From the NCBI GenBank assembly GCA_964016885.1, contig OZ024743.1, positions 54,188,001 to 54,252,000 on the forward strand: 64,000 nt of DNA. Reading direction: 5' to 3'. Below, one piece after another: positions 6,801 through 64,000 of this stretch; position 1 is the first letter of the stretch; each line of letters opens with the position of its first letter. The position numbers and the translations under genes were made by a program. The notes under the pieces are model-generated. The model was given only the letters and a program-made list of their open reading frames with translations, had not been told where the DNA came from and did no database searches. Origin of the DNA: Eledone cirrhosa (Eukaryota).

Positions 6801-9800
6801 ATGTCTATCTTTCTGTATGTACGTATATGCCTGGCTGTCTCTACGTCTGTCCGTGCCCCTGTGTCTCTATGTGTGTGTGTATGTCTGTCTTTCTGTATGT
6901 ACGTATGTGCCTGGCTGTCTCTAAGTCTGTCCGTGTCCCTGTGTCTCTATGTGTGTGTGTATGTCTGTCTTTCTGTATGTACGTATGTGTCTGGCTGTCT
7001 CTACGTCTGTCCGTGTCCCTGTGTCTCTATGTGTGTGTGTGTATGTCTGTCTTTCTGTATGTACGTATATGCCTGGCTGTCTCTACGTCTGTCCGTGCCC
7101 CTGTGTCTCTATGTGTGTGTGTATGTCTGTCTTTCTGTATGTACGTATGTGTCTGGCTGTCTCTACGTCTGTCCGTGTCCCTGTGTCTCTATGTGTGTGT
7201 GTGTATGTCTATCTTTCTGTATGTACGCATATGCCTGGCTGTCTCTACGTCTGTCCGTGTCCCTGTGTCTCTATGTGTGTGTGTATGTCTGTCTTTCTGT
7301 ATGTACGTATATGTCTGGCTGTCTCTGCGTCTGTCCGTGTCCCTGTGTCTCTATGTGTGTGTGTATGTCTGTCTTTCTGTATGTACGTATGTGTCTGGCT
7401 GTCTCTACGTCTGTCCGTGTCCCTGTGTCTCTATGTGTGTGTATGTATGTCTGTCTTTCTGTATGTACGTATGTGTCTGGCTGTCTCTACGTCTGTCCGT
7501 GTCCCTGTGTCTCTATGTGTGTGTATGTATGTCTGTCTTTCTGTATGTACGTATGTGCCTGGCTGTCTCTGCGTCTGTCCGTGTTCCTGTGTCTCTATGT
7601 GTGTGTATGTATGTCTTTCTGTATGTACGTATGTGTCTGGCTGTCTCTGCGTCTGTCCGTGTCCCTGTGTCTCTATGTGTGTGTGTGTATGTCTGTCTTT
7701 CTGTATGTACGTATGTGCCTGGCTGTCTCTACGTCTGTCCGTGTCCCTGTGTCTCTATGTGTGTGTGTGTATGTCTGTCTTTCTGTATGTACGTATGTGC
7801 CTGGCTGTCTCTACGTCTGTCCGTGTCCCTGTGTCTCTATGTGTGTGTGTGTATGTCTGTCTTTCTGTATGTACGTATATGCCTGGCTGTCTCTACGTCT
7901 GTCCGTGCCCCTGTGTCTCTATGTGTGTGTGTATGTCTGTCTTTCTGTATGTACGTATGTGTCTGGCTGTCTCTACGTCTGTCCGTGTCCCTGTGTCTCT
8001 ATGTGTGTGTGTGTATGTCTATCTTTCTGTATGTACGCATATGCCTGGCTGTCTCTACGTCTGTCCGTGTCCCTGTGTCTCTATGTGTGTGTGTATGTCT
8101 GTCTTTCTGTATGTACGTATATGTCTGGCTGTCTCTGCGTCTGTCCGTGTCCCTGTGTCTCTATGTGTGTGTGTATGTCTGTCTTTCTGTATGTACGTAT
8201 GTGTCTGGCTGTCTCTACGTCTGTCCGTGTCCCTGTGTCTCTATGTGTGTGTATGTATGTCTGTCTTTCTGTATGTACGTATGTGTCTGGCTGTCTCTAC
8301 GTCTGTCCGTGTCCCTGTGTCTCTATGTGTGTGTATGTATGTCTGTCTTTCTGTATGTACGTATGTGCCTGGCTGTCTCTGCGTCTGTCCGTGTTCCTGT
8401 GTCTCTATGTGTGTGTATGTATGTCTTTCTGTATGTACGTATGTGTCTGGCTGTCTCTGCGTCTGTCCGTGTCCCTGTGTCTCTATGTGTGTGTGTGTAT
8501 GTCTGTCTTTCTGTATGTACGTATGTGCCTGGCTGTCTCTACGTCTGTCCGTGTCCCTGTGTCTCTATGTGTGTGTGTGTATGTCTGTCTTTCTGTATGT
8601 ACGTATGTGCCTGGCTGTCTCTACGTCTGTCCGTGTCCCTGTGTCTCTATGTGTGTGTGTGTATGTCTGTCTTTCTGTATGTACGTATGTGCCTGGCTGT
8701 CTCTACGTCTGTCCGTGTCCCTGTGTCTCTATGTGTGTGTGTGTATGTCTGTCTTTCTGTATGTACGTATGTGCCTGGCTGTCTCTACGTCTGTCCGTGT
8801 CCCTGTGTCTCTATGTGTGTGTGTGTATGTCTGTCTTTCTGTATGTACGTATGTGCCTGGCTGTCTCTACGTCTGTCCGTGTCCCTGTGTCTCTATGTGT
8901 GTGTGTGTATGTCTGTCTTTCTGTATGTACGTATGTGTCTGGCTGTCTCTACGTCTGTCCGTGTCCCTATGTCTCTATGTGTGTGTGTATGTCTATCTTT
9001 CTGTATGTACGTATGTGTCTGGCTGTCTCTGCGTCTGTCCGTGTCCTTGTGTCTCTATGTGTGTGTGTGTATGTCTGTCTTTCTGTATGTACGTATGTGC
9101 CTGGCTGTCTCTGCGTCTGTCCGTGTCCCTGTGTCTCTATGTGTGTGTGTATGTCTATCTTTCTGTATGTACGTATGTGTCTGGCTGTCTCTGCGTCTGT
9201 CCGTGTCCCTGTGTCTCTATGTGTGTGTGTATGTCTATCTTTCTGTATGTACGTATGTGTCTGGCTGTCTCTGCGTCTGTCCGTGTCCTTGTGTCTCTAT
9301 GTGTGTGTGTGTATGTCTGTCTTTCTGTATGTACGTATGTGCCTGGCTGTCTCTGCGTCTGTCCGTGTCCCTGTCTCTCTATGTGTGTGTGTGTATGTCT
9401 GTCTTTCTGTATGTACGTATGTGTCTGGCTGTCTCTGCGTCTGTCCGTGTCCTTGTGTCTCTATGTGTGTGTGTGTATGTCTGTCTTTCTGTATGTACGT
9501 ATGTGCCTGGCTGTCTCTGCGTCTGTCCGTGTCCCTGTGTCTCTATGTGTGTGTGTATGTCTATCTTTCTGTATGTACGTATGTGCCTGGTTGTCTCTGC
9601 GTCTGTCCGTGTCCCTGTGTCTCTATGTGTGTGTGTGTATGTCTGTCTTTCTGTATGTACGTATATGCTTGGCTGTCTCTACGTCTGTCCGTGTCACTGT
9701 GTCTCTATATGTGTGTGTATGTCTGTCTTTCTGTATGTACGTATGTGCCTGGCTGTCTCTACGTCTGTCCGTGTCCCTGTGTCTCTATGTGTGTGTGTGT

Positions 9801-24218: not shown

Positions 24219-24428
24219 TTATATATATATATATATATATGCCTGCCCGTTTGTGTGTCTGTCAGTCATTTTGTCTGTCTGTCTATCAAGTCTCTCCTTG
24301 TCTGTGTGTTAGCCAGCCTGTGTCTGTCAGCCTGTCTGTATACGTGTAAGTATATATTTGCATGTGTCTGTCTCTGTCATTGTTTCTACCTCTATGCCTT
24401 TCTCTCTATCTATCTGTGTCTATGTGTT

Positions 24429-25692
24429 AGCGTCCGTCACTTACTACCGCCTGACTGTCGTGCCTTGCCCTAAGGAAACACTCACCACCATGGAACGCAT
24501 GCTCTTCCAATTTCTTTGGAAGAAGCGCTCTCCTATGGTGAGAAGATCCATCTGCTGCCAACAACCTTCAAAAGGAGGGCTGGGGATGCCGTGTTTGATG
24601 ATGCGTAGGCACGCATTAAGGTTACGGCACCTACAGGCTTTCCTCACTGGTCAACCGGTGTGGGCTCCGTTCGTGAAACGAGCCTTTCCGAGACTCGTCT
24701 CGCTCACCGAGCTGCAGTCCTGGGTCAAGCAAAGATCCGGAAAACTGGGAGACTGGCACACTGAGTGTGCCCAGGCGCTCAGGGCTTTCTGGCAAGCGGG
24801 CCCGGCAATCGGTGGAGAATCCACCTCATCATTCTATAGAGGGCTGGTGGCTAGCAGGGGCGATGACACCCTTGGAGAGTCGCTGGACATGGAAGAGGAC
24901 GAACTGGCCAGCCTGTTCGGTAGGACTTTCAGCCCGGGACCAATGGACAACTTCCAGAAGTCACTAGCCTGGCAGTGCTACCGGGGGGCTCTACCCGTTC
25001 GAGAGAGGCTCTACAGACACGGGCGCCCGGGCAGGGATCCATCGAAAAAGATTTGCCCTAGATGCGTGCGACACGAAGAAACCGTTGCGCACGCATTGGT
25101 GCAATGTCCGGGCGTGGCTGATCTGTGGGGTTACGCCGAACGACTGCTGTCGCGGGTGGCGCCGATTCGATTGACCGCCGAGTCCGTGATGATAATCAAG
25201 CCGCCTCCCCTCTTCACAAAGGAAGCAAAGGCGGTTTTTCTGTGCGTAATAGCCATGTTGAAAGAGGTTGTTTGGTGGACACGATTGAAAGGTCTGAGGT
25301 CAGGCAACTTCCTCTCTGGCCATAGTCTGGTCTACTTCTTCCGATATCACTTCGGAAGAAGGATAACAATGGAGAAAGAGGTGCTTGGCCACAGGCAGTT
25401 TTATGAAAGGTGGGTGATAGTGGCGAGAAAGGCTCGTGTAAATGGGCCTTCTCTGTATTCCATCCTGTAGGTAAAGAAGTGAAGGAGAGGGGAGCACCCT
25501 CTCCATGTGCTCCCCGGGCAAAGGATTGCACACTTTTTCGGGGGGGGGGGGGGTGCAACCCCCATCACGTCCCCTCCCTTTTGAGGTTGTTTTCGATTAT
25601 TTTCATTTTATACTCTTTTTACTCGGTTTTATGTAAATTCCCCCTTTGTATTTGTCCCTTCTTTTTATGCCTTTATGATAATTAAAGAAATA
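24429..25692 (+). mobile_element. 5'-truncated L1/Tx1-clade LINE (copy A) with 18-bp TSD
   Basis: Encodes the ORF2 C-terminus (YYRLTVVPCP...CPRCVRHEETVAHALVQC...stop 25470), closely matching 53416-54459. TSD tatctgtgtctatgtgtt lies at 24411-24428 and 25693-25710. Confidence 0.93.
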
Positions 25693-25961: not shown

Positions 25962-26160
25962 CGTAGGTCCCGGGTTGAGTCGGGGATAACCACAGTAAGT
26001 AAGGTACTCAATACATGGCAGAGTAAAATTTTTTATTTTATAGAAGGAGCTTCTACAGGACTAGTACTGTTTCATTCAGATGAAATCTTCAGGAAGCCTG
26101 GCTTCCTGAAGATTTCATCTGAATGAAACAGTACTAGTCCTGTAGAAGCTCCTTCTATAA
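25962..26160 (-). mobile_element. Penelope-like pLTR fragment with fold-back palindrome, in (TA)n
   Basis: Perfect 61-bp arms 26038-26098 and 26100-26160 with a 1-nt loop. Contains a hammerhead and is flanked by (TA)n on both sides. Confidence 0.75.
26101..26149 (+). ncRNA. Type I hammerhead ribozyme (mirror copy on - strand at 26049-26097)
   Basis: gcttc CTGAAGA t-ttc-atct-gaa-t GAA ACAG tactagtc CTGT A gaagc: 5-bp stem I, 4-bp stem III, GUA cleavage triplet. Confidence 0.8.
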
Positions 26161-26177
26161 TATATATATATATATAT

Positions 26178-26760
26178 ATACGATATATTAACAAATGGAA
26201 ACTATATTTATAAAACCATATTTATTTGATTATACATATTTCAAGGACACCAAGTTAAATTATGGTGTGCTTTCATCAGATAAAATATAATATAGAGCAG
26301 TTTTATAAATAAATATTGACATACCCTTAAAGAATGCGACCATTTCTGTTGGAAACACCCGGATATTGGGGTTACAACTTTACTTATACTATTATGTAAA
26401 TTAGTTTCGGAATTTTTAAATCAGTGTAGATTTAAATATGCCGAAACTAATTTACATAATAGTATAAATAAAGTTATAACCCCAATATCCGGGAGCTTCC
26501 AACAGAAATGGTCGCATTCTTTAAGGGTATGTCAATATTTATTTATAAAACTGCTCTATATTATATTTTATCTGATGAAAGCACACCATAATTTAACTTG
26601 GTGTCCTTGAAATATGTATTATCAAATAAATATGGTTTTATAAATATAGTTTCCATTTGTTAATATATCGTATTTTTACTCCAATAATTTGTTGAGTGCT
26701 TTATATCAGTTATAAAAATATTTGCTTGTTGTATCTCAACAATTTAAATAGAACTTCTAC
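26178..26760 (+). mobile_element. Penelope-like pLTR fragment with ~245-bp inverted arms, in (TA)n
   Basis: Arms 26178-26422 and 26429-26673 with about 8 mismatches and a 6-nt spacer. The right arm continues ~85 bp to (TA)n. Hammerhead in each arm. Confidence 0.75.
26564..26628 (+). ncRNA. Type I hammerhead ribozyme (mirror copy on - strand at 26223-26287)
   Basis: tattttat CTGATGA aagcacacca-taatttaact-tggtgtcctt GAA AT atgt AT (T/A) atcaaata: stem II 9/10 paired, stem I 7/8 paired, minimal stem III. Confidence 0.7.
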
Positions 26761-27174: not shown

Positions 27175-27362
27175 GTGTGTGTACGAGAGGTATGTATGTT
27201 TGCTTGATATAAAGATTCTGAGAGAGGGGCGAGAGAGAGAGAGTCAGAGTGAGAAAGATATATATATATATATATATCTTTCTCACTCTGACTCTCTCTC
27301 TCTCTCGCCCCTCTCTCAGAATCTTTATATCAAGCAAACATACATACCTCTCGTACACACAC
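27175..27362. repeat. Near-perfect palindrome centred on (AT)n
   Basis: gtgtgtgtacgagagg...gagaaag (AT)10 ctttctc...cctctcgtacacacac; the arms differ only by one GA unit. Confidence 0.95.
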
Positions 27363-28289: not shown

Positions 28290-28478
28290 TGTTTCTACTT
28301 TAGGCACAAGGCCAGCAAATATCCAGTGCATTACTGGTACTTTATTTTATCGACCCCGTAAGGATGAAAGGCAAAGTCAACCTCGGCGGGATTTGAACTC
28401 AGATCGTAAAGGGACGTAACTATGCTGGAAAGCATGGCGTCCGACCCTCTACCGATACTACCAATCCACCGCCTGTAT
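28290..28478 (-). mobile_element. tRNA-derived SINE with Nin/Deu-like core (family 2)
   Basis: On the - strand: A-box-like head, gagttcaaatcc B box, and core gcctttcatccttacggggtcgataaa. TSD tttgcctgtaataac at 28275-28289 and 28479-28493. Confidence 0.85.
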
Positions 28479-33079: not shown

Positions 33080-33087
<8 letters not shown>

Positions 33088-33570
33088 AAATATTTCGTAT
33101 CACAAAGGAAATACGGTTTTAGGAAGCCGTAGCTATGCATACGTCGGGGGGCTAACGCCCTCTGGTGATGTCCAGCAGAAGCAAGGGGGACAACCGTCTA
33201 TGCATTTCAGGCTTAACTGGCCTTCGTCAGGACGGTTCCTCCCACCGCTTGCGACTGCTGGACTAGAAGATAGCCGAGAATATATACATTTCTCGTCTGT
33301 GTAAATGAGGTGATTATGAGAAAAGTATATATTCTCGGCTATCTTCTAGTCCAGCAGTCGCAAGCGGTGGGAGGGACCGTCCTGACGAAGGCCAGTTAAG
33401 CCTGAAATGCATAGACGGTTGTCCCACTTGCTTCTGCTGGACATCACCAGAGGGCGTTAGCCCCCCGACGTTTGCATAGCTACGGCTTCCTAAAACCGTA
33501 TTTCCTTGGAGATACGAAATATTTATACATATTGTATAAAGCTATGCTTGAAGCGAAATCCTATTTCTTT
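33080..33570 (+). mobile_element. Penelope-like pLTR fragment with ~215-bp inverted arms, in (TA)n
   Basis: Arms 33080-33294 and 33318-33532 with few mismatches and a 23-nt spacer. The right arm extends ~38 bp further. (TA)n on both sides. Confidence 0.78.
33376..33419 (+). ncRNA. Minimal type I hammerhead ribozyme (mirror copy on - strand at 33192-33237)
   Basis: accgtc CTGACGA aggc-cagttaa-gcct GAA ATGCAT A gacggt: perfect 6-bp stem I, 4-bp stem II, palindromic stem III as in PLE-associated dimerising hammerheads. Confidence 0.9.
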
Positions 33571-33591
33571 TATATATATATATATATATAT

Positions 33592-34773: not shown

Positions 34774-34848
<75 letters not shown>

Positions 34849-34904
34849 CGTAAAATAAGAAAATAAAAAAAAAAATGTTAAAAAATTAACTTACTTAAAT
34901 TTTC

Positions 34905-34986
34905 CCTCCAACTAATTAGTTTCTGCAATGGGATAAAGACAGTTACGTAATGAACTGTTGAGAATTTCATTGCGTCATCAGGGAGG
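34905..34986 (-). ncRNA. Type I hammerhead ribozyme with extended stem II
   Basis: On the - strand: cctcc CTGATGA c-gcaatg...cattgc-a GAA ACTAATTAGT T ggagg. Palindromic stem III. Lies in a ~390-bp insert between (TA)n tracts. Confidence 0.8.
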
Positions 34987-35231
34987 TCTATTCTCAGCCA
35001 AGTCTCCAGGCAATGCGCGGACACTGGGGACTCATATAAAAATAATAATAATTCGGTAAATGGAACAGCTATCGGGGACTGGATTCCAAGCTCTGAAAAT
35101 TCTCGCTGCCACTGGTCAAATGGCCGATTCTAAAGAATCAATCACGTGACACTGAGGCTAGTCGGTAGGAGTGTATTTGCTGGCATTAGCGTACATCTGT
35201 GCGCTTATGTTAGTAGATATATTAAATTATC

Positions 35232-35293
<62 letters not shown>

Positions 35294-43257: not shown

Positions 43258-43372
43258 GTTCAAATCCCGCCGAGGTTAACTTTGCCTTTCATCCTTACGG
43301 GTTCGATAAAATAAAGTACCAGTAATGTACTGGGTATTTGTTGGCCTTGTGCTAAAAGTAGAAACAATTATT
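43258..43372 (+). mobile_element. Nin/Deu-like SINE (family 2), 5'-truncated
   Basis: gttcaaatcccgccgaggttaactttgcctttcatccttacggg...gaaacaattatt. Confidence 0.85.
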
Positions 43373-43382
43373 ATGACCAAGT

Positions 43383-44679: not shown

Positions 44680-44858
44680 GGGATTGGCAATATCGGTAGA
44701 GCATCTTTTACAACATCGAGTTATGGCCCTTTACGTCCTGAGTTCAAATCCCGCCGAGGTTAACTTTGCCTTTCATCCTTATGGGTTCGATAAAATAAAA
44801 TATCAGTAGTGCACTGGATAATTGTTGGTCTTGTGCTAAAAGTAGAAACAATTATTAA
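44680..44858 (+). mobile_element. Nin/Deu-like SINE (family 2)
   Basis: ggattggcaatatcggtagag head, gagttcaaatcc B box, core and tail. Confidence 0.85.
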
Positions 44859-44861
44859 TAC

Positions 44862-44899
<38 letters not shown>

Positions 44900-44904
44900 A
44901 ATAC

Positions 44905-44982
<78 letters not shown>

Positions 44983-44984
44983 CT

Positions 44985-45558
44985 GCGGAGCAAGCAATTA
45001 TCAAACAATCTTTTAAATAAATTAAAAAACGATTTAAATATTCACCTTTTCTATTGCTGTTACCGACGGTTTCACTAATCAAAAGATTGGAAATCTAGAG
45101 AATTTCCAATGGAAAGAATTAGATCTTCAGACAGTTTATTTCCATACCATAAGGGTGCAAATCTCATAGTAAGTCAATATTTTGCTTCCTGCCCGACGCA
45201 TGCGGTCAAGCCGTTAAAAGGACACACACGCAAAATTAGGCCACAAGTAAAAGCTGGTTATTATAAACTTGTTGATCGTGCCACTAAAAATAGCAGCGCG
45301 ATACAACGTTTTGTTCTCTATATAAGGATAACTATCATAAAAGTGTATGGATATTCCAACAGGCACTAGGTACCTATAGAAATATGCATGGTGTTTATAA
45401 TAGTTGTGGTTCGATTGTACTAATTTGAGATACCAGAACTATAAAAATGAGCGGAGCAAGCAATTATCAAACAATACTTTAAATAAATTAAAAAACGATT
45501 TAAATATTCACCTGTTCTATTGCTGTTACTGACGGTTTCACTAATCAAAAGATTGGAA
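44985..45558 (-). mobile_element. 466-bp unit with ~108-bp terminal direct repeat (PLE pLTR / retrozyme-like)
   Basis: gcggagcaagcaattatc...gattggaaa at 44985-45092 and 45451-45558; abuts (TA)n. Confidence 0.75.
45057..45134 (-). ncRNA. Type I hammerhead ribozyme with extended stem II
   Basis: On the - strand: ctgt CTGAAGA t-ctaat...[ttggaaat/atttccaa]...attag-t GAA ACC gtc GGT A acag. Confidence 0.8.
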
Positions 45559-45823
45559 AATATATGGAAAAATGAAATTTCATTTCTCATTCTTAGTACG
45601 GCTGATACTTAAATATAAGTATGTATACGTACATACATATATGTATACAGACGTACAGTAGTATGTATATACATACATACATGCACACGTATATATATAT
45701 GTACGTATGGGTTTACCGAACATTTATTATAATGCTCGGTTTGTTTGTAAACAAACCGCCCGAATTGGGCCATATAGTGTTCGGCAACCATCGTTGCCCT
45801 TTTGTTCAACACTGACAAAGGAA

Positions 45824-45990: not shown

Positions 45991-48878
45991 TTTCAACATC
46001 CCCCTTTCAACACCCCTCCTCAAGTCCCTCCTTTGGTGGGTACTATGCGGATTTTTGAACCACGAAACAGACTATATAATATCGGTAGGTAAGTCCTCCG
46101 GCGACCTGTTTAGCGGAACTAGCCTGGAAGCTCTGGTCCAAATGACACCAGAACGAATAGCTAGGATCCCGGAAACGTGTGTTGCTGGATGGGCTTATAT
46201 AAATAAACATTTCGATCGAGGGTAGGCGGCCCTCATGTTACCACTGCTCAAGCAGGGGTCACTTGAGAGCTTCCTGTCCTCGGCTAACTAACCCCAAAAA
46301 GGCACTACTGCCAACACCTGCAACACCAGCACAACAATCACTACCACCACCACCACAACAACAACATAAAAAAAAATAGTGACAACAAAACAAACGACAA
46401 ACACAGTCCCACCCAACCCCTCCCCACCTAAAACAACTCCAGAAACACCCACACACATAACCGCTCCCCAAAACGTACCCCTCCCCAACAACACGGATGA
46501 GGCCTCATCATCGTCACCCAGTGACGATGAGGGAGTGCCTTTCCGACCAGCAAATAGAAAAAAGAAAAGACATAACACAAACAAAAATGCATCATACACA
46601 CAAACACCAACACAAGCGACGCAAACAGCACAAACAAAAACACCCCCTCCTGAAAACAAAACACCTACTACAAAACGTAAACACACACAAGAACCACAGA
46701 CAAAAAGCAACCCAACACAACAATAATGTTACACCTACATAAATACTAACAATAAAACTTTAACAGACACCATATATAAAAACCCTTCGGTGGAGACCGA
46801 AGGGAAAACTTTTACACACTCTTCGGAGAATCCTAATCTTAAAATGATTAGGACCTCCATGGACACACATAAACAATTAAAAGAAAAATTTCCTAACGAC
46901 GTACGTAACCCCTGCGTCAAACCCTACAATCGAGTCCTATTAAAATGTTTCCCCACCCCCACCCCTCCAGGGACCACCACCCCACTAACCAACCCCTCCA
47001 ACACCCCCATGGAAATTGTGCAGCCTGGTCCCCAGGAGACGAAGAGGTGAGTGATTTCTTTTCCTCTTCTGTTAACTTTTCAGCACCAACATGGCCAATA
47101 TAAGAGTTGGATGTGTGAATGTACGCGGCCTGGGGATGCCCTGGAAACAGGGCAAACTCTTAAACGACCTCAGGTCGCACAGCATGGATGTAGTAGCCAT
47201 TTGCGAGTGCAGGATCCACAGCGAGCGACAACTGGCCCCCATCTTCGATGACTTTGAGATCTACGCATCTCTCTGTCAGCCGGGAGGTGGGGGTGGGGTT
47301 GCCGTTTTGCTGCGGAAACACCTGGACCTCTTAACACAGACGGTACATCTGGACCCGGGAGGTCGACTGGTGGTCCTAGACGTTTGCAACTCGGAACGTG
47401 GAGAGGCAAACCGATGCCTTCCGATGATGTCGTCGGACGCTGGACGGAAGGACCGGTAAAGCTGCTCGGGGTCTGGTTTGGTCCTGACCTCCAGGTGGAG
47501 AAGAACTGGAACGAGGTGACGGCCAAGGTGTTTGCGCTCACCCAGAAGTGGGCCGAGTGCAAACTATCCTTGAAAGTTCGAGCGGAGGTGGCGAACACTT
47601 TTATAGCGTCTAACATCTACTACCGCTTGACCGTTGTGCCTTGTCCAGCCAAAACGCTCACCAAAAAGGAGCGCGCGCTCTTCCAATTCCTTTGGAAGAA
47701 ACGGGCTCCTTTGGTGAGAAGATCCATCTGCTGCCAACACCCTTCAAACGGAGGGCTGGGGGTGCCGTGGCTGACTATTCGCAAACACGCGCTCAGGCTG
47801 CGGAACCTCCACGTATTGCTCACCAGACAACTGGTGTGGGCCCCGTTCGTGAGGCGAGCCTTCCCACGACTCGTCTCGCTGACCGAGCTGCAGAACTGGA
47901 TCAAGCAAAGACCGAGGAAAATGGGCAACTGGCATATCGAATGTGCTCAGGCGCTCACAATCCTCTGGCAAACGGACCCGGCGATCAGTGGAGACTCCAC
48001 TTCGATATTCTATAGAGGGTTGGTCCGCAGCAAGTGCGACGACACGCTCGGAGAAACTCTAGGCGTAGAGGAGGACGAACTGGCCAGTCTGTTCGGTAGG
48101 ACCTTCCGCCCGGGACCAATGGAGAACTTCCAAAAGTCCCTGGCCTGGCAGTGCTACTGAGGAGCTCTACCAGTTCGAGACAAGCTCTACAGACACGGGC
48201 GCCCGGGTAGGGACCCTTCGAAAAAGGTCTGTCCGAGATGCGTGCGCGACGAGGAAACCGTCGCACACGCATTTGTACACTGCCCGGGCGTTACCGACCT
48301 GTGGGGCTATGTAGATCGACTATTGTCGCGGGTGGGACCAATCCAGTTGACCACCGAGTCCATTGTCATGATCAAACGGCCACCCTCCTTCAAAAACGAG
48401 GGAGAGGCGGTTTTCCTATGTGTCATGGCTATGGTGAAAGAGGTTATATCGTGGATGAGGTTAAAAGGTCTTAGGTCAGACACCTTTCTCTCCGGCAAGC
48501 AACTGATTCCTTTTTTCAAATATCATTTTGGAAGAAGAATCAGGATGGAGAGAGAGGTACTGTACCCCAGCAAATTTTATAAAAGGTGGGTGAATGTGGC
48601 AAAGATGGCCCGAGTGGTTGAGCCTTCTCTCTATATAAGCCTGTAGGTTGAGGAAAAAGAGGAAGAGAGGAAGGGAGTGCTCACTCTTGGTGCTCCTGGA
48701 GATGAGGGTTGTACATTTTTTCGGGGTGTGTACAACCCCTGTGTAACACCTCCCCCCTATTGGGGATTTCAATTGTTATTTGTTGTTTTATTAATAGTTT
48801 TATTTTCATATACCTGTATGTAAACTCCCCATTTGTATTTGTCCCCTTCTTTTGTGCCCTTGTGGCTAATAAAGAAAT

Positions 48879-48880
<2 letters not shown>
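45991..48880 (+). mobile_element. L1/Tx1-clade LINE (copy B), 5'-truncated and internally deleted
   Basis: Frameshifted ORF1 remnant (LVQMTPERIARIP). ORF2 starts at ATG 47091, then jumps from APE to post-RT sequence at ~47382 and has a TGA at 48158. The 3' end aataaagaaat runs into (TATC)n. The 5' boundary is approximate. Confidence 0.9.
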
Positions 48881-48936
<56 letters not shown>

Positions 48937-49188
48937 GTATGTCTCTCTCTATCTATCTATCTGTCTATCTATCTATCTATCTATCTTGATAGAGTAAGAC
49001 ACGCTTCGCATCGGCTCCGCTATTCCATCGGGATTTACCCTTACTATTGTAAGTACCGGATAAATTTTTTAGTGCAACACATTTGGAACACTAACCCCTG
49101 TTATTTAGGGAAACATTTTTGCATTTACCCCCTTTTTAGGGGGTAAAATAAATATCTATTTTTGCCGAAAAATTTCTTTCTTGGCAGC

Positions 49189-51021
49189 ATGGCGGAAAAG
49201 ATGGCAGACATGTCTGCCATTAGCTCTGCCACGCCCCCCAAGTCTGAAGAACAAAAAATAATTACAACAAAATTAGACATTGAAACAAACAAACAAAATG
49301 AAAAAACAAATGTTAAGGAAAATGAGCAAACAGAAAACAAACAAACAGAAAATAATACAAATAACGACAGGGCAACTTTCGCCCAGAAAACAAAACAATC
49401 CATTACATACACACCAATTGACCTAACTGCCGCCAGAGAAAAACTGGCCGAAGCAAAGAAACACATTGTTTTGGGGGAGAACGGAATGTTTTCCATTAAC
49501 TCCCCCCCAGAATTCAAGAAAGCCAGAGCAGAAAACACAGTTCTATACAGAACTATACTGAACCAGACAAGAAAACCAGCACAGCCCAGCCAAATGGAAA
49601 TAGAGTTAGTCCTAAAAGACTATATGAAGAATATTCTCTTCATACGAAAGGACCGACTCTATGGCAGCATTTCGGTCCTAACAAGAGACAAAGAAACGGC
49701 GGAGAAGCTTTCCCTAAGCCCACTCTCGTCGACAACATATAGCTTCTATCCCTCCTACATGGGTAGAAGAACACAGAGAGTAAAAGTAAAAACAATGCTG
49801 CCCACAATGGACTTCTGGTGGGCTATTGCTGGCTTCATTGATATGGGCGAAGACACTATGCTGTCAATGGGGAAGGCAACTGGAGATGCGTTCCTGGGAA
49901 TGGGCCTCGACATACTAGTCCAAATGAGGCCCGAAAGAATAGCACAAATCCCGGATCACATCTGGCTGGATGACCTTACCCCAATAGACATAATTGTAAA
50001 GGGGAGAAGACCAGCATGCTATTTATGCATGGAAAGGGGACACGTTAAGGCTAACTGCCCGAAACGTATCCCCCAAAAAGGACTATTGCCCACACCCACC
50101 ACAAACAGTACACCAACACCACCCACCTCCAAAAATACACTAATACCACACACAGCAAACAAAATACAGACACCACCAACCACAAACACAACACAAACAT
50201 CACCACCACCAGCACCAAACACAAGCACGACACAAAAATCACCACCACCAACCACAACACAAACATCACCACCACCATCACCAACCACAAGCACGACACA
50301 AACATTACCACCACCACCACAAAACCCATTCCAAACAAATAATAAAAAAAACAGTAACAAATCTACCCCTCCCGCAAAAAAAAAACAACCACACAACACG
50401 TCCCTCCCACCTAGCGCTGAAGAGTTTCCCCCAACTTCTGAAGAAGAAGGAGGAGAAGCCTTCAGACAAGTTAAAAGAAAAAAAAGAAAACACACACCCA
50501 GCACACCACAAATAACCCACACACAAACACCAACTCCAATCAAAAACACCCCACCCTCAACAAACAAAAATAAATCTGCGCCTCCCCTCTCCGAAACATT
50601 GACAGCATCACAAAAAAAGACGTTGCAATACACATATATAAATAAAGAAAACAAAAAACTGGTTAAATTAATAAACAATAACCCTATGGTGCAGACCGAA
50701 GGGCCAAACTTTATCTCAACAGAGAACTTTACCCATTTAAAAATGATAAAGGTCCCTCTGGACCTTTATCGTTCCTTAAAAGAACAATTTAGACGGGACG
50801 TGAGCCCCCCCTGTTTAAAACCGTTGAATCGCGTCCTCTTGAAAGATTTCCCCATAACTGCCCCTCTCTCTGACACAACTCCAAATACCCCAACCCCACC
50901 ACACACGTGTACCCCCACACCACCACAAAACATCCCTCCACCCAACACACCTGATGCCATGGAAATTACGCAACCCGGAGAGGTAAGTGCTTTTCTTTCT
51001 TCACTTTCAACACCAAAATAG
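49189..51021 (+). CDS. LINE ORF1 protein with CCHC zinc knuckle and Pro/Thr-rich tail
   Basis: Open frame from ATG 49189; CYLCMERGHVKANC (CX2CX4HX4C) at ~50017-50058; basic patch KRKKRK. Confidence 0.85.
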   Translation: MAEKMADMSAISSATPPKSEEQKIITTKLDIETNKQNEKTNVKENEQTENKQTENNTNNDRATFAQKTKQSITYTPIDLTAAREKLAEAKKHIVLGENGMFSINSPPEFKKARAENTVLYRTILNQTRKPAQPSQMEIELVLKDYMKNILFIRKDRLYGSISVLTRDKETAEKLSLSPLSSTTYSFYPSYMGRRTQRVKVKTMLPTMDFWWAIAGFIDMGEDTMLSMGKATGDAFLGMGLDILVQMRPERIAQIPDHIWLDDLTPIDIIVKGRRPACYLCMERGHVKANCPKRIPQKGLLPTPTTNSTPTPPTSKNTLIPHTANKIQTPPTTNTTQTSPPPAPNTSTTQKSPPPTTTQTSPPPSPTTSTTQTLPPPPQNPFQTNNKKNSNKSTPPAKKKQPHNTSLPPSAEEFPPTSEEEGGEAFRQVKRKKRKHTPSTPQITHTQTPTPIKNTPPSTNKNKSAPPLSETLTASQKKTLQYTYINKENKKLVKLINNNPMVQTEGPNFISTENFTHLKMIKVPLDLYRSLKEQFRRDVSPPCLKPLNRVLLKDFPITAPLSDTTPNTPTPPHTCTPTPPQNIPPPNTPDAMEITQPGEVSAFLSSLSTPK

Positions 51022-54000
51022 ATCAATTGAGAGTTGGCTGTTTGAACGCGCGTGGCCTGGGCTCAGCTTGGAAGCAAGCAAAGCTTCTAAGTGACCTCAG
51101 GTCACAAAGTATAGATGTGATGGTTGTTTGCGAGAGTCGGATCAGCAGCGTGAGACAGCTGGCGCCCGCCTTCGATGACTTTGAGATGCACGCATCTCTC
51201 TGTCAACCCGGAGGCGGGGGGGGGGGGGAGTTGCCGTACTGCTGGATAAACGTCTGACTCTCGACGTACAGATTGTTCACTTGGACCCGGGGGGTCGATT
51301 ACTGGTGCTGGACGTCGGAGGCGGTGAAGGCGGGGCTTTCAGACTGGTCGGTCTTTATGCTCCCTTCGGGGCGGAAAGAGCCGACTTCTTCCAGCGTCTG
51401 GAGACTTTTATAGGAACGTCGCGTTCCCTGCTTTTAGTGGGGGACTGGAATGGAATCCTAGATGCGCGTTGGGACTATGCAGGGGCATGTCCCGATAGAG
51501 GGGGGTGTAGCAGCCTCAAGGGGTTACTCGATCGATTCGACCTGGTCGATAGATTTCGACTAGATTGTCCAACTGCGCCAACCTGGACCTGGGCAAACCG
51601 CAGTGGACAATCTAGATCGTACCTAGATAGGTTTTGGTTAGGAGTAAGGATAGGGACGTATTTAGTTGTCCAGAACTGATCATGGTTGGCTATTCAGATC
51701 ACAAATTAGTGACTTGCGTGGTCAACCTTGATAGAACGCATAGACAGGGTCCCGGTTACTGGAAGATGAACTTGTCCTTACCGACAAAGAAAGATTACAG
51801 AAACCGGATTAGTAGCTTAGTTAAGATGCGGTTGACGGGAGCGATCGTCAACAGTAGGTGGTGGATATCTCTAAAGAGAGAGATTAGAGTAAGTTCGATA
51901 GGTTACAGTAAGGAACTAGCGGCGAATAGAAATAGGAGGGAAAGGGAGTTAACAGATAAACTAGAAGAGGCGATTAGGAGCGGAGACGTAGCCAGAGTGT
52001 TAGCGACGAGAACGGCATTGAGCCAGTTCTTTGACGCGAAGCACGAAGGCTGCGTTGTCCGAAGTAAAATACGTGCTTTAGGAAACGAGGGGACCAAAGC
52101 TGTTAGCTGGGCCCGCGTGACAGAAGCCAAGAGTGGGATTAAATCCACCATTCGGTCTTTGCGAGACCAGGATGGACGGGTGATCCTTGAACCTGAGCGA
52201 ATGTGCGAGACCTTTCAAAGGCACTTTGCTCGACTGTTCGGAGGTGGCGGGGGGCCGGACGGGGATGTGGACTTCGGTCCATACCTCGACGGTCTACCGC
52301 GTCTTTCGAGCGGCGAAGCGGAGTGCTGCGAAAGGCCAATCACAGCCACTGAAATCGGGGAAGCGCTCAGCCAATGCAGCAGACGCAAATCCCCGGGTCT
52401 CGATGGTCTACCATACGAACTTTATTTAGCTATGCCGGTCTTGTTCTCCGAACTCCTCGAGGCTGTCTATTGCAACTGGCAACAGAACGGGAGAATTCCC
52501 TGTTCTGTGACCAAGGGCGTGGTCACGCTAGTGAGGAAGGACGAGAGCAAGGGGGACGACTTAAGTAACTTTAGGCCCATAACTCTGCTGAATGCAGAGT
52601 TACAGATTTTGGCCAAGGTGTTGGCGAAGAGGTTGGCGCTTGTGGTGGGTGGTTTGGTGGGAGACGCGCAGACATGCGCTATCCCGTCCAGGTCCATTCA
52701 CGACAACCTCCACCTCATGCGATACATCATAGAGAGGGTTGGCTACGAACCCGGCTTTGGTGGGGCCCTGATCAACTTGGATCAATCTAAGGCGTTCGAT
52801 AGGGTCGACCATGGTTACCTGGATGCGGTGCTAGCGGCGGCGGGCTTCGGACCCGTTTTCAGGGGCTGGATTTCTGCCATGCACAGTGGCAACATCTACT
52901 CTAGGATTAAAGTAAACGGCTACCTCTCGGAGCCGTTTCAAATCACCCGATCCATCAGACAGGGGTGCCCCCTCTCCTCCCTTCTGTACGTATTGACTCT
53001 CGAGCCACTGCTGCGGAAGTTGGAGTTGCTGCGGGGCATACCCCTGGAACCGGGATTGCACAAAGCGGTCTCGGCCTATGCCGACGACGTAACAGTAATG
53101 GTGGCGGACGCCTCGGAAATCGGGGCGATCGCCACCCTACTGGAGGAATACGAAAGGCTGACGGGGGCTAAGCTGAACCAGGACAAGTCAGTCGGTTTGC
53201 AACTCGGAACGTGGAGGGGCAAACCGATGCCGTTAGACGGTGTCGTCGGGCGGTGGACGGAGGGCCCGGTGAAGCTGCTCGGGGTCTGGTTCGGACCGGA
53301 CCTCCAGGTGGAGAAGAATTGGGGCGAGGTGACGAGCAGGGTGTTTGCGCTGACCCAGAAGTGGGCCAAGTGCAAACTATCACTGAAAGGTCGGGCGGAG
53401 GTGACGAACGCTTACATAGCGTCCGTCATCTACTACCGCCTGACCGTCGTGCCTTGCCCCAAGGAAAAGCTCACCATCATGGAACGCATGCTCTTCCAGT
53501 TCCTCTGGAAGAAGCGGCCTCCCATGGTGAGGAGATCCATCTGCTGCCAGCACCCTTCGAAAGGAGGGCTGGGTATGCCGTGGCTGTTGATGCGTAGGCA
53601 CGCATTGAGGCTACAGCATCTACAGGTATTCCTCAACGGTCAGCCGGTGTGGGCCCCGTTTGTGAGGCGAGCCTTCCCACAGCTCGTCTCGCTCACCGAA
53701 CTGCAATCCTGGGTGAAGCAAAGACCGAGAAAACTGGGCAACTGGCACACCGAGTGTGCCCAGGCGCTCACGGCTATTTGGCAAGCGGACCCGACTGTCA
53801 GTGGAGAATCCACCTCGACATTCTATAGAGGGTTGGTGGCTAGCAGGGGCGACGACACCCTTGGAGAGTCGCTAGGCATGGAGGAGGACGAACTGGCCAG
53901 CCTGTTCGGTAGAACTTTCGGCCCGGGACCCATGGACAACTTCCAGAGGTCCCTAGCCTGGCAGTGTTACCGGGGGGCTCTGCCCGTTCGAGAAAAGCTC

Positions 54001-54459
54001 TACAGACACGGGCGCCCGGGCAGGGATCCCGCGAAAAAGATCTGTCCCAGATGCGTGCGCGACGAGGAAACCGTTGCGCATGCACTGGTACACTGCCCGG
54101 GCGTTGCCGATCTGTGGGGCTACGTCGAACGACTGCTGTCGCGTGTGGCGCCGATTCGATTAACCGCCGAGTCTGTGGTGAACATCAAGCCGCCTCCTCC
54201 CTTCAGAAATGAAGCAGAGGCGGTCTTTCTGTGCGTAATAGCCATGATGAAAGAGGTTGTGTGGTGGACGCGCCTGAAAGGTCTGAGGTCGGGTGACTTT
54301 CTCTCCGGCCATCACCTGGTTTACTTCTTCCGATACCACTTCGGAAGAAGAATCAGGATGGAGAGAGAAGTGCTTGGTCCCAGACAGTTTTATGAAAGGT
54401 GGGTGAAAGAAGCGAGAATGGCCCGTGTAAATGGGCCTTCTCTCTACATTGTTCTGTAG
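51018..54459 (+). pseudogene. LINE ORF2 (APE endonuclease, reverse transcriptase, CCHC) with two frameshifts and an ATA start
   Basis: Motifs GCLNARGL, GDWN, YLDR, SDH; KSPGLDG, FRPITLLN, DQSKAFDRV, RQGCPLS, YADD; CPRC..EETVAHALVHC. Frameshifts fall in G runs at 51216-51228 and ~51630. 51634-54459 is open. Confidence 0.92.
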
Positions 54460-57150: not shown

Positions 57151-59357
57151 CTGGATCAGGGCTGACCTGTATCTAAGTCATAGCCACAAACACAACAGCA
57201 ACAACAACACATAATACACACTGCTACACGAGAGTATCTCTATGTATTTGAATCGCTATACCTATAAACTCTTTGTAGTTACTGGGGGAAATGTGAAGCT
57301 GTGTTGGCTTAATAATTAGGGTGTTCGGTTCATGATCGTTGAGAGTTCCATTCCCAGAGACAAGTTGTGTTTTTGAGCAAGACAATTTATTTCACGTTGC
57401 TGCAGTCCGGTCAGCTGGAAAATAAAGATGTAGTAGATGTAATTGGAATAGCCAGTCTTATCACACACAGATCAGGCTGAATCTACCTTAGAATTACGTT
57501 AATGCTGCACATGTTTGTAGAATGAAGAGCAAATTGCCTGGAAAAAATAGCTATGTCTGTAATCCGATGCATTAGCCTTGTCACACAATGTGTCATGCTA
57601 AATCTCCCCGAGAACTACATTAAATGTACACGTGTCTGTGGAATATCCATCCACTTGTATGTTAATTACCTACAGATCCAACAACAACAACAGATAAGAT
57701 TAGTAAAACTATTATTTTAAATTCAGCGGTATTTTGAAGCTATTTTGTTGATTGTATTATGGACTATATTAGCATGGGATAGGCTTAATTCAATTTTTTT
57801 TAATCACATGTCAAGAGCAAGCATGGCTATGTGGTTAAGGAGTTCACTTCGCAACACTGTGTTTACGGTTTCAGTTTCGCTGTACCTCAGCTAGTGTGTG
57901 TGTCTCAGACTGACAAATGCTTTTGAAATGGAATTTGGTAGATGGAAACTGCAAAAGATCTATCATTTTCTCACAGTTTGGCAGATTGTTTCTTGTGTAA
58001 GTTAAACATTTCTTTTATGTATTCGTTATTTGATTCTATATTTGCTACTCTGTCCTTGTGTATAAATGTTTTAAATTAATCGAAAGATTTTTGGCGAGTA
58101 ATCCAGTGTTTATAGCCCCCACAAATGTGTTATCTCAAAAGCGGTCTTCCTCTATTTTTGGAGTTCACGTGTCATGACAGCACTGTACTGCTAGAATTGG
58201 CGAGGCTAGTGTTGAGTATGGACGTGTTCAACTGAAGACCACTATGTTTGGATGGGATTGTCATGCTGATGAAGTGCAGCTTAGCCCGGTTGCATAATAT
58301 CTGCTGACATTAGACAATTCTCTGCATATAACACTTTTAATAAAAACTTTTATAGGCAAAATGTTGCGCAAAAACGGATCTATCCAGGATTATCTTCACC
58401 CAAGCACTACCATCTTACTTACTAAGCAACTGTAAATGTGTACTCTGACAACTGGTTTGCATTTACTCACGGTTCGAGAAAAATGTATCGATAAAATCAA
58501 TACCAAAATATTTACTGGGGTCGCCATGATCGACTAAATTCCTAAATAAATGAGTATGGGCCTGGTTGTTATCATTGAGTAATTTAAAAACTCAATAAGA
58601 TGATGACATTTTAACAGCAATTTAAAAAAAAAAGAAAAAATGGCCTTTATCTCCTGATGCTGTAGGAGCGTTGCCTTCACAAATTACGTGTCTTGGACAA
58701 TAAGAAGTTGGTGGATCCCATTCCTCTTCAGGTCAAAACCCAGCTGATTTATTCTACAAGGAGAGAGAGAGCGGGGGAGCGAGAAAGGGTGAGAGAGATA
58801 GGGTGGAAAGAAAAATCGACCTTAGAGTTTGACAGGTATTTTATGTATAGACCTGGAAAAGATGAAAAGTAGATTTGAACGTGGCAAGATTTAAACTCGA
58901 GGCGCAGTGAGCCATAACGTAAACAGAAGCCTTTATAATCGGATGCTCTAAATACGCTGAAAATTTTCCGCCACTAACAACACCTGTTGATAAAGAATAA
59001 CAGAAAACATACAAGATTCATATATTGACATTTTTCGTTAGGGTATGATTTCCCAAACATATATATCTTGCAACCGTAAACAACGCCAAAGCTACTATCG
59101 CCATTTTGCATTTTAGTAGCAACGATACCAGAATTCTTGCAGTAAATAGCATTCTGACTTGTTTCACTGTTTTATGTGAGTAGGTTTCCTTTATCGACTG
59201 GTGTCTTTTAATGAGGTTATCACAAATGGTTTATGTGTTTCCAGTGATATAACTAAGATATCTAACTATTTGCTTGTACCTCTTATCTTTTCCCCGATAT
59301 CAATATAATCTATCTGTCCGTCTATCTACCTATCTATCATTCATTCTCTCTCTCTCC

Positions 59358-60702: not shown

Positions 60703-61812
60703 TTTTCTCTTTCTCTTAATTTCGAGTATATTTTTTTGACCGGCCACCTTCCTGGTGGCAAGGTTGTAAAAGAAAAGAAATTGTCATCCCTTGAATCGCA
60801 AGAATGTTTTGCAAATTTTGAAGGTGCCAGCTATCGCAGCCATTTGTAGACTATGAATTAGGGAGCTGCGCTTTTTGTCCGCAAATCCAAGTTCAGTCAT
60901 ACTTTGGTCCAAGCGGGTTGGTATATAACCCGTAGCACCAATAATGATGGGTATGAAGCTAAAGGTGTATCTTGGATACTGGATTTGTAAACTCCTCATC
61001 AATGGTCCGTAGATGTCCTCCTTCTCCTTTATTTTTCTGACAACGTTTACATCAAGTGGGCAGCTGATCTCCACAACAGAACACGTTTTCAATGTGTGGT
61101 CCCAAACTACAATATCAGGCAGGTTGTGCTTTAATTTGGTGGCAGTTTTTATTTTCAGGTTCCACCAGTATTCCTTAGTGCCATCTGTCTCAATATATTC
61201 TTCCTCGTTTGTTGTTAATTTTGTTTTCCGAAGTGCGTTCCAGATGGTTCTAGCTATCCCATCGTGTCTCATGGGGAGGTAGTAGCGAGATGACATTCTT
61301 TCGCAGCTGGCAACAATGTGGCTTACATCCTCGATCTTTGTTTTACATAGCCTACATTTATTGTCAGCTGCTGGCCCTCCTCTTTTGTGCAGCAGATATT
61401 TGGTAGGGAGTTCTTGTTCCTGTATTGCATAGAGATATCCCTCAAGGTGTGATGTCATAAACTTGTCGGAACTCCATGCCAGGCTTTTTGAGTGGTTTAT
61501 CCCCTCTATGGTCTGTGTTTTACGCCTCAAGTATCCATGCACAACTTTTTCTGTAAATTGGTCAATTTTTTTATCTTGTTTGAACATTGAATAGGATCTT
61601 CCGATTTCTCTGGGTGAGAGATTTATATCAGGCTTTATTCCATATCTCTCCTCCAGATCAGTCGCTATTCTAATGATATTTCTTTTTTCATGGTCATAAA
61701 CCTGGGCAAGATGGTTGCCAACCTTTTTCCTCTGTTGAAGGTGTTGCTTCAGTGTCACTATCCGGGTCTCATATGTTGTTAATATTGATTTTAGACCCCG
61801 GCCACCTTCCTT
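60703..61812 (-). mobile_element. 5'-truncated R4/Dong-type non-LTR retrotransposon (RLE endonuclease)
   Basis: Open frame KEGGRGL...AIQEQEL..CRLCKTKIEDVSHIVASC..RHD..PDIVVWD..EISCP..KEKEDIY, stop at 60784. (TATG)n on both sides. Confidence 0.9.
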
Positions 61813-61899
61813 GTATGTATGTATGTATGTATGTATGTATGTATGTATGTATGTATGTATGTATGTATGTATGTATGTATGTATGTATGTATGTATATA

Positions 61900-64000
61900 G
61901 ATCGCGCAGTTAAACCACCGGGAGTGAAGAATCCCTAGCCCTTGTCAGGGTATTCTTCTAGGAGAAGGCAACTCAGGAACCTGTGTTAACTCCGACATAA
62001 AACCAGCGGCTCAGTAGTTACCGATGATGTTGATCTTTTCTTCTTTTCGGGTTATAGCTACTGTCGCTCAGAGAGTAGGATTGGCTCAGTGCACAGTCTT
62101 TCCTCACTTTAAAAATATTCTTCACGCACAAGCATTGCACGATTGCATTAATTAATAATTATTAATAGTGTAGTATATAAGGTTAACTTTGCCTTTCATC
62201 CTTACAGGGTCGATAAAATAAAGTACCAGTAATGCACTGATAATTACTGGCCTTGTGCCAAAAATAGAAACAATTATTATTATTATTATTATTGTTACTA
62301 TTATTATTACTTGTTTTTTTCTTTTCCCAATTCAATGATGTTCCAAAACAATATAAAAGAGATAATTGTCAATAAGGGTTCTGGAACAAAAGAGATAATT
62401 GGCAATAAGAGCAGGGACCTCAGGTTATCACAGCCTGGGGCTGCTCGTCATCGTGCCACTGTAATAGAGCCAAACAAGGTATTTAGTCTTGGCTGCTGGA
62501 ACGTACGGACGCTGCTTGACAGAGATTCCTTGGAACGTCCTGAACGAAGGACCGCTCTTGTTGCAAAGGAGCTTTGACATAGTAGCTTTATCTGAGACGA
62601 GGTTAGCTGGAGATGGTCATCTTACAGAATTTTGTGGAGAATATACATTCTTCTGGAAAGGAAGAGATGAAGGAACCAGAAGAGAGGCTGGCGTAGCATT
62701 TGCTGTTAAGACTGTTCTTGTGAATAAATTAGAAGAATTCCAGTAGGGATTAGTGAGCGACTTATGAGAATTCCGCTGGACAAAGGAAGATATGCGACCC
62801 TGGTGAGTGTGTATGCTCCAACTATGAATTCTGTCGATGAAGAAAAAAAATGTCCTTTTACCATGCCTTGAAAGGTGTTTTAAGAAATATCCCTCAAGCC
62901 CACAAAGTAATCGTGCTTGGTGACTTTAATGCTAGAGTGGGTAAGGATTTTAATACATGGAATGTAATCGGAAGGCATGGGGTGGGAAAGTGCAACAACA
63001 ATGATATGCTCCTGCTGCAGATGTGTTGGAACACCATGTTCCAACAAAAGAACAAATTTAAGACTACATGGATGCATCCTGCATCTAAGGAATGGCATCT
63101 TTGGACTACGTTCTAGTCAGGATGCGTGACATGTGCAGTGTGTTCGTGCTCTTCGTGGAGCTGAGCGCTGGACGGACCACCGCCTGGTACGCGCAAAAGT
63201 GAAACTAATCACTAAACGTAAAATCCGGGCTCCTGGTGTTGCCCTGCCCAGAAGATTGAATGCTGCTCGTCTTAGGGATAAAAACGTGAAGAGGACATTG
63301 CGAGAAGAGATGCAGGTTGCAGATCTTGGTGAGGATTGGCCGACCCTTAAAAAGTCGGTTTATGATGTAGGCAGGCGTGTTCTGAGATTGGTGCAGTGAA
63401 AACATCAAGACTTGTTTAATGAGAATAATGAACATATAGAAGACTTGTTGGCTGATAAGAGGCGTGCTCTGTCACGCTACTTGGCGGCAAAACCACCGGA
63501 GAAGAATATGTTGCATAAGGAACTCAAGGATGTGAAATCACGTGTTAGGCGGAGTCTTTCTCAGATGAAGGATCAGTGGTGGAGTGAGAAGGCTGATGAG
63601 ATACAAACTGCGTCAGATTCCAATAACACAAAGCTGTTGAACAGTCTTTTTTCGTGAAGTTTATGGACCCTCTTCTTCTCTGGTGACACCGCTTCGCAGC
63701 AAGGATGGCAAAGAACTTTTTGTGACTCACAAGGAATTCTACGAAGGTGGCGAGAGCACTTTCATGAGCTTTTGAATCAGCCGTCTGTCGTCAATGAAGA
63801 TTTCCTCAATCTCATTCCAGAAAGTCCTGTGAAAGTAGCTCTCACAGAACCTCCGACACTTGTGGAGGTTGCAGTGGCTATCTCGAAGCTGAACAGTGGA
63901 AGGTCTCCAGGTATGGATGGCATACATGCAGAGCTCCTACAATATGGTGGTGAGAGACTCCTGCAACATCTTCACTCTTTGTTTGGCAGGATATGGGCTA
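61900..64000 (+). mobile_element. Decayed RTE (BovB-like) LINE 5' half, with a family-2 SINE fragment at ~62180-62275
   Basis: [52 protein letters not shown]; many frameshifts; runs off the window end. Confidence 0.92.

Follow-up and report, generated by a model that had tools for sequence, protein, structure and literature searches.

Penelope-like elements (PLEs) insert with a bias for (TA)n, and their insertions show 5' truncation, partial tandem copies and a tail of 30-40 bp (PMC8557442). In an anole PLE studied in vitro, priming is internal, downstream of the hammerhead, and two sites define the tail (PMC11167929). Cleavage is dispensable in this system, and uncleaved RNA is the main substrate (PMC11167929). 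Animal retrozymes, which are often monomers, have been argued to be non-autonomous PLE derivatives (Li et al., bioRxiv 10.64898/2026.07.22.740005); no mollusc was sampled in that study. For cephalopods, the accessible portion of PMC6962438 gives 235 annotated hammerheads in the giant squid, and that of PMC8967140 describes Penelope elements as abundant in coleoids. In the literature covered, which excludes most subscription journals, we found neither a cephalopod retrozyme nor a Hydra-type hammerhead with a long stem II described.

Here, we describe an insertion in a 64-kb stretch of DNA (the window). An initial annotation had seen in it a hammerhead-delimited unit resembling a non-LTR retrozyme. 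We consider the insertion to be, in all likelihood, a 5'-truncated copy, 1.23 units long, of a multi-copy, non-coding 466-nt family. This family is likely a non-autonomous PLE, of the kind known as non-LTR retrozymes, that depends on the enzymes of another, (TA)n-targeting PLE; the Hydra clade is their most likely source. The resemblance to a retrozyme held for a multi-copy, non-coding, structured, hammerhead-bearing family. It did not extend to what Li et al. call an "active retrozyme", since the locus carries one complete hammerhead and that term requires two consecutive complete ones.

Anatomy of the 466-nt unit and its hammerhead

The features of the insertion are collected in Table 1. The direct repeat, which had been put at about 108 bp, is real and has an offset of 466; its length was corrected to 109 bp and its end to 45559 rather than 45558. 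The two copies are identical at 105/109 positions, with the four mismatches at 45010, 45011, 45048 and 45064. The repeat can be extended to 44974-45093 and 45440-45559 (113/120 identical, 94%, E 7e-49), and the left end of the insertion may reach 44974 via TATA microhomology. On the minus strand, two GUA triplets with ends at 45061 and 45527 are 466 nt apart, as the initial annotation had claimed. No TSD was callable at the insert because both flanks are TA. No other copies of the unit were found within the window.

Table 1. Features of the insertion and its flanks in window coordinates
Feature	Position	Strand	Details and basis
Whole insertion	44985..45559	-	575 nt, ~1.23 units; repeat alignment
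Unit, cleavage site to cleavage site (predicted monomer/circle)	45061..45526	-	466 nt, 35% GC
Left (3') copy of the 109-bp direct repeat	44985..45093	-	repeat alignment
Right (5') copy of the repeat = pseudo-LTR	45451..45559	-	repeat alignment
Complete type I hammerhead	45057..45134	-	core motif and helices; predicted cut after 45061
5'-truncated hammerhead: 3' arm of stem II, GAAA, stem III, GUA ending 45527	45523..45559	-	
Non-coding spacer with several long hairpins	45136..45410	-	folding: structured on ribozyme strand only
Likely PLE-type optional "tail"	45400..45450	-	depth step at 45400, contig X1-8 start at 45408
Putative GT-AG intron	45439..45511	-	73 nt, starts 16 nt past cleavage site; consensus match only
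(TA)n microsatellite, left part of likely target	44862..44979	.	repeat scan
ATATAT, right remnant of likely (TA)n target	45560..45565	.	sequence inspection

A different repeat ends at 45566-45612 and abuts the element, with a summed contig depth >1,000,000 in organism A. Continuation of the right copy beyond 45559 via a deletion was ruled out, as 45570-45612 belongs to a different repeat (>1,000,000 summed depth). One hairpin arm of the spacer has a 38-nt inverted match at 57632-57668 (84%, E 7e-5).

The absence of a convincing ORF between the cleavage triplets was borne out. The longest stop-free stretches are 74 codons in sense (no ATG) and 96 codons in antisense, and a Pfam search of both gave no match. 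The 74-aa sense stretch had 0 matches against 1.84 billion representatives. An RT plus GIY-YIG ORF between pLTRs, which marks an autonomous Penelope-like element, is absent from the insert. The spacer forms a stable fold on the ribozyme strand (z -4.1, 0/200 shuffles as stable) compared to the plus strand (z -0.7, 45/200 shuffles), and the 466-nt unit as a whole gave a z of -2.7. A search of the unit for a B box was negative. The putative intron spans the repeat/body boundary, and its splice donor is the only donor in the unit. Introns of Penelope and Chlamys-3 overlap or span their repeat/body boundaries, according to the available part of PMC8557442. A donor at +16 was also seen at the other long-stem II hammerhead (34910), and three other sites checked were without a donor. 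The splice-donor background is 0.0012 per position, and the +16 coincidence is a post hoc consensus match.

The left copy had been proposed to hold a complete hammerhead and the right copy to be cut off inside stem II, and the mapped motif parts agree. In the left copy, 45134-45131 pairs with 45060-45057 to form a 4-bp stem I, and the core consists of CUGAAGA at 45130-45124 and GAAA at 45073-45070. The stem II region (45123-45074) is 50 nt long and is made up of U.U, 6 bp, an internal loop and an 8-bp distal hairpin, while stem III is palindromic, with 4 bp + 1 nt. CUGANGA, GAAA, NUH, three helices and an open stem I, which identify a type I hammerhead, are all present. The R10.1-Y11.1 pair is absent and is replaced by U.U at that position. 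The right copy begins at 45559, within the distal hairpin of stem II, and is without CUGANGA. Its stem III has a private mismatch at 45530, where ~100% of the family depth carries the other base.

A strict hammerhead descriptor was run on the 24.4-64 kb part of the window with microsatellites removed (36.4 kb). Four motifs were found, and none of 200 dinucleotide shuffles yielded any match; therefore, the motif is not a product of chance. Rfam detected no hammerhead in the whole window (E<=1) or in the element alone (E<=10). Its matches were otherwise low-complexity, microRNA-like and below gathering scores, plus one chance match. The miss is probably due to the 50-nt stretch between CUGAAGA and GAAA.

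Folding was also used to consider how the RNA might cleave. The active hammerhead fold lies 6.2-6.5 kcal/mol above the minimum. Self-pairing of the stem III palindrome gives -11.3 kcal/mol, compared to -5.4 kcal/mol with the mutated right copy. This self-pairing points to dimer-type cleavage, as in the PLE hammerheads covered by the available part of PMC4209133, and the palindromic stem III predicts that cleavage would occur mainly as a dimer. With the single intact core on the right site in a double-hammerhead pairing, the constrained fold is -126.0 kcal/mol, compared to -127.2 kcal/mol for the monomer and -133.7 kcal/mol for the free fold. The costs of the two folds, 7.7 and 6.5 kcal/mol above the minimum, are similar and, thus, a "truncated" right site is predicted not to be necessarily "uncleavable". 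Such pairing might in principle let the one intact core cleave the right-hand site. Private changes in the window copy weaken stems I and III; with the family alleles, stem I is longer (45135) and stem III is restored (45530). The copy at this locus appears to have since decayed and its predicted hammerhead to be at best weakly active.

Several other elements were observed in the window, which is rich in AT microsatellites and has an 82-bp satellite over its first 24 kb (827-24148, ~288 copies, strong strand asymmetry). On the minus strand at 34844-35233, an insert of ~390 nt between two (TA)n runs holds a second, apparently unrelated type I hammerhead (34910-34985). Its 51-nt stem II is closed by a C.A mismatch, its stem III is palindromic, a splice-donor motif lies 16 nt past the cut and the element ends 66 nt past the cut. 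This hammerhead was tried as a relative of the one at 45 kb and gave no convincing alignment. A tRNA-like fold at 35040-35140 was unsupported (z -0.5), and ARAGORN found no tRNA in the 24.4-64 kb part of the window. An inverted pair of minimal hammerheads at 33080-33575 (93% over 449 nt, cuts at 33199 on the minus and 33413 on the plus strand) is a classic PLE inverted insertion, with ends 115 and 157 nt past the cut and hence a 42-nt tail difference. Overlapping inverted hammerheads at 26034-26164 (cuts at 26054 on the minus and 26144 on the plus strand) have a short stem II with U.U at its base and sit beside a separate 496-nt near-perfect palindrome at 26178-26673. A perfect-looking hairpin of ~150 nt at 27194-27344, centred on a TA run, is possibly an inverted-duplication scar.

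Several RT-type non-LTR fragments lie at 46000-54459 and 24313-25470, and we take these copies to be L1/Tx1-like. They comprise an ORF1-like stretch at 49147-51021 (weak zf-CCHC), an RT ORF at 51631-54459 (RVT_1, E 4e-24) and further fragments at 47076-48646 and 24313-25470. A 386-aa C-terminal non-LTR RT fragment with zf-RVT at 60784-61944 on the minus strand, 44-56% identical to nine RVT_1 proteins, is presumably R4/Dong-like. Short interspersed repeat copies at 43258-43373, 44742-44857 and 28318-28410 (two 93% alike, the third recognized by eye) are assumed to be an octopus SINE. Judged by this SINE motif and the mix of transposable elements, the host is presumably an octopus.

Copies of the unit in public sequencing reads

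Seven public sequencing runs were listed, none of them recorded as RNA, and four of these contain part of the stretch. Four of the seven (all but X2, X6 and X7) were compared with the stretch. In one sample of organism A, 1556 contigs from run X1 and 1592 from run X3 matched, most at 90-99% identity and with depth in 29/29 bins. Run X4 (share 0.05) contributed only 3 contigs. In metagenomes, a 22-nt motif gave 0 hits, and the 4 hits of a gapped motif were discarded because all fell in coding contigs of bacterial type and had no stem I. Among the 19 of 3157 pieces listed, overlapping diverged ones cover 44988-45553. The tiling pieces among those listed are 45086-45201, 45107-45236, 45159-45313, 45245-45402, 45379-45515 and 45408-45527. 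Again among the pieces listed, three diverged contigs cross the repeat/spacer junction (45450/45451) and reach 31 letters or more to either side of it. The tiling is weakest at 45395-45409, where the bridging sequence extends <31 letters to one side. It is pieced together from different molecules: no one record covers the entire unit, and the listed read-derived records are too short to span two consecutive hammerheads.

RAD reads from a second study were also available. In these, 293 molecules end at 45425 where 2729/2821 begin at 45199 and, on the opposite strand, 139 molecules end at 45020 where 647/703 begin at 45202. Assuming that molecules start at the dominant site, spans of 227 nt and 183 nt are therefore colinear in other copies. 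Opposite-strand joints in the RAD run were excluded as possible ligation products. Since contigs and RAD spans recur, the short distance from the post-cut sequence to the next core is a family trait and not a local accident. The initial annotation had named a single-copy unit, or one confined to the pLTR of a coding PLE, as speaking against its reading. The unit is neither single-copy nor a chance junction because diverged contigs and read pairs tile it, and in the reads these other copies tile it without an ORF.

Depth over the hammerhead and tail was ~6,000-35,000 (lower bins of 2,500-8,800 inside repeats), mostly several times the 600-7,000 in the middle of the spacer. This terminal excess fits 5' truncation, and it also fits a longer coding partner with a common terminal part. 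Alleles that are nearly fixed against the window copy, e.g. at 45096, 45135, 45220, 45321, 45416 and 45530, are private decay or species differences. In organism B, one contig matches 45003-45126 with 4 differences, and a low-depth (2.9) contig of a distant relative keeps GAAA and the palindromic stem III.

The variation was also compared with the predicted structure, using 40/213 variant rows. Stem II covaries: three of its pairs (45119 with 45078, 45121 with 45076 and 45122 with 45075) carry complementary changes on both sides, and U.U is kept. In this variant subfamily the two arms were seen on separate molecules, with the 3' arm represented by one contig (a loose end). Thirty alleles are listed in the unit, 12 of them at predicted pairs, where 9 keep the pair and 3 break it. 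The 20 listed spacer alleles lower the sense fold energy compared to random changes of the same type (p 0.024; antisense p 0.41). A count version of this test was not significant (13/20, p 0.27).

Origin of the insertion

The insert combines a partial tandem, 5' truncation, a hammerhead in the pLTR and a microsatellite target, all of which are PLE traits. A partial tandem PLE pLTR had been offered as the alternative to a retrozyme, and it turned out to be no true rival, since the anatomy itself is PLE anatomy. At this locus, "retrozyme" and "pLTR partial tandem" are the same thing. The suggestion of a circular or tandem RNA template is upheld to the extent that a cleaved linear monomer cannot be the template, because the insert reads through both cleavage sites. 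The DNA is compatible with both an uncleaved tandem RNA and a ligated 466-nt circle; we lean toward the tandem RNA and regard the circle as the somewhat less likely template.

The insertion was probably copied by a PLE enzyme acting in trans from an RNA longer than one unit, with target priming and internal initiation. A source locus with more than one unit would be transcribed, and a PLE RT/GIY-YIG protein would nick (TA)n DNA. The 3' end of the insert lies 76-87 nt past the left cut. Priming would be internal on the RNA, at this distance downstream of the cleavage site, possibly through pairing with UAUA at +84 to +87. Copying would then pass one cleavage site, continue over the full unit and cross the next site, and the RT would fall off 33 nt past this second site to leave the pseudo-LTR. 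The depth step near 45400 and the contig end at 45408 suggest a second 3' end ~40-45 nt further on. The inverted hammerhead pair with cuts at 33199 and 33413 and ends at +115 and +157 shows this two-end tail pattern directly. Another five hammerhead motifs of the window have (TA)n 15-157 nt downstream of them.

The enzymes may come from the Hydra clade. (TA)n is the target of nearly all Hydra families, and the clade includes Hydra-1_Obim from Octopus bimaculoides (PMC8557442). In the Hydra rows of File S2 in the accessible supplement of that paper, U.U closes stem II in 14/26 and a 4-bp+1 palindromic stem III is present in 17/26, as counted by hand with duplicate rows included. By hand count in the same supplement, the ends of six Hydra consensus sequences are 36-116 nt beyond the cut. 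The window hammerhead and its (TA)n context match the Hydra pattern except for stem II length. Axolotl HHR_Amex2 also carries U.U, according to the available part of PMC7229834. When six exact motifs were searched against the Hydra/Naiad supplement, in which line breaks can hide matches, 0/6 matched, and no helper PLE was found. Since no motif matched and the signature was compared with Hydra rows alone, the Hydra clade as the helper is a lead.

A different possibility is that the stretch is the 5'-truncated 3' end of an autonomous coding PLE with two hammerhead repeats 466 nt apart, in which case the unit never moves alone. Most PLE insertions are indeed 5'-truncated (bioRxiv 10.64898/2026.07.22.740005; available part of PMC8557442), and axolotl PLEs with tandem minimal hammerheads are mentioned in the accessible text of PMC7229834. 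Depth peaks at the terminal hammerhead region, and no sequence was seen upstream of a complete right-hand hammerhead. However, the six Hydra consensus elements in the available part of PMC8557442 have a single 3' hammerhead ~60-250 nt from the ORF stop, the spacer is without a protein match, and the listed loose ends within the unit (22/342) resemble colinear variants or flanks rather than coding sequence. We therefore find this origin unlikely. The private changes that weaken stems I and III could also mark the hammerhead as a dead relic within a DNA-level partial tandem duplication or satellite remnant, and PLE ends can seed satellites by unequal crossover (bioRxiv 10.64898/2026.07.22.740005). 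Such an event is very improbable given that diverged copies share the junction, stem II shows covariation, one strand alone folds stably and TA flanks the insert on either side.

The remaining explanation is a branch of PLE-driven copying rather than a departure from it, and holds that the element is a strict circRNA-producing retrozyme whose abundant 466-nt circles in vivo serve as the template. The insert does consist of a unit plus a partial unit, its strand-specific stable fold resembles the self-paired circles of coral, mussel and axolotl (available part of PMC7229834), and folding suggests that double-hammerhead pairing could in principle let a single core cut the right site. In contrast, only one complete ribozyme is present at the locus, PLE-type hammerheads cleave poorly in vitro (accessible portion of PMC4209133), and 8/9 predicted Xenopus retrozyme dimers were uncleaved (bioRxiv 10.64898/2026.07.22.740005). 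The preference of the anole PLE for uncleaved RNA, with cleavage dispensable, also argues against it (PMC11167929). We regard this strict form as possible and rather doubtful.

The element type is already known and widespread, and the base case adds one family. If true, the preferred origin would connect a non-vertebrate retrozyme-type unit with one particular PLE clade (Hydra), a link that goes beyond the tests of Li et al. (bioRxiv 10.64898/2026.07.22.740005). A long-stem II hammerhead was missed by standard scans and, therefore, ribozyme counts in such genomes may be underestimates. The 1.23-unit form with one intact core offers a compact test of tandem RNA versus circle as the template for PLEs. 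A broader reading, to which we give little credence, is that the 466-nt family and the unrelated 34844-35233 element represent an overlooked, probably cephalopod, class of non-autonomous Hydra-type PLE passengers. The ~50-nt, mismatch-closed stem II of this class would escape Rfam and short-spacer descriptors, and with the donor at +16, self-cleavage and splicing (or U1 binding) might be coupled in production of the 466-nt circle.

Comparison with known elements

Metazoan non-LTR retrozymes share with the window element a non-coding unit of a few hundred nt, GC <50% and a type I hammerhead at the unit junction (PMC7229834; bioRxiv 10.64898/2026.07.22.740005). Self-paired predicted RNA, many copies and the lack of any LTR, PBS or PPT seen are further likenesses. 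At 466 nt, the unit is longer than the 170-400 nt of reported retrozyme circles, but it is within the 51-972 bp consensus range. In contrast to these retrozymes, the window element is 1.23 units long and has one complete ribozyme with a 50-nt stem II. TSDs of non-LTR retrozymes, when present, are longer than 4 bp; the TA flanks here allow no TSD to be called.

The anole Poseidon PLE, PAc, is similar in that its RT starts internally past the hammerhead cut, with two tail-defining sites, and in its AT-rich target (PMC11167929). PAc differs in being autonomous, with an ORF that starts inside the hammerhead, whereas the frames after the cut are closed in the window element (PMC11167929). Non-autonomous Chlamys elements such as MRC1 are likewise PLE derivatives that lack an ORF and yield pLTRs and copies arranged head to tail but, according to PMC8557442, they are green algal, and Chlamys elements are mostly without hammerheads.

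The Hydra-clade PLEs are alike in U.U closing stem II, a palindromic 4-bp+1 stem III, a short stem I and a (TA)n target, and their 3' end lies a few dozen to ~115 nt past the cut. They differ in carrying an RT/EN ORF, which is absent here, and the window element has no sequence match to the listed consensus motifs. The stem II region is 50 nt here, compared to roughly 12-26 nt in the Hydra rows in the accessible supplement of PMC8557442. A stem II region of ~50 nt does have a precedent in the same source, in the row for the plant element PLE-X1_sMoe.
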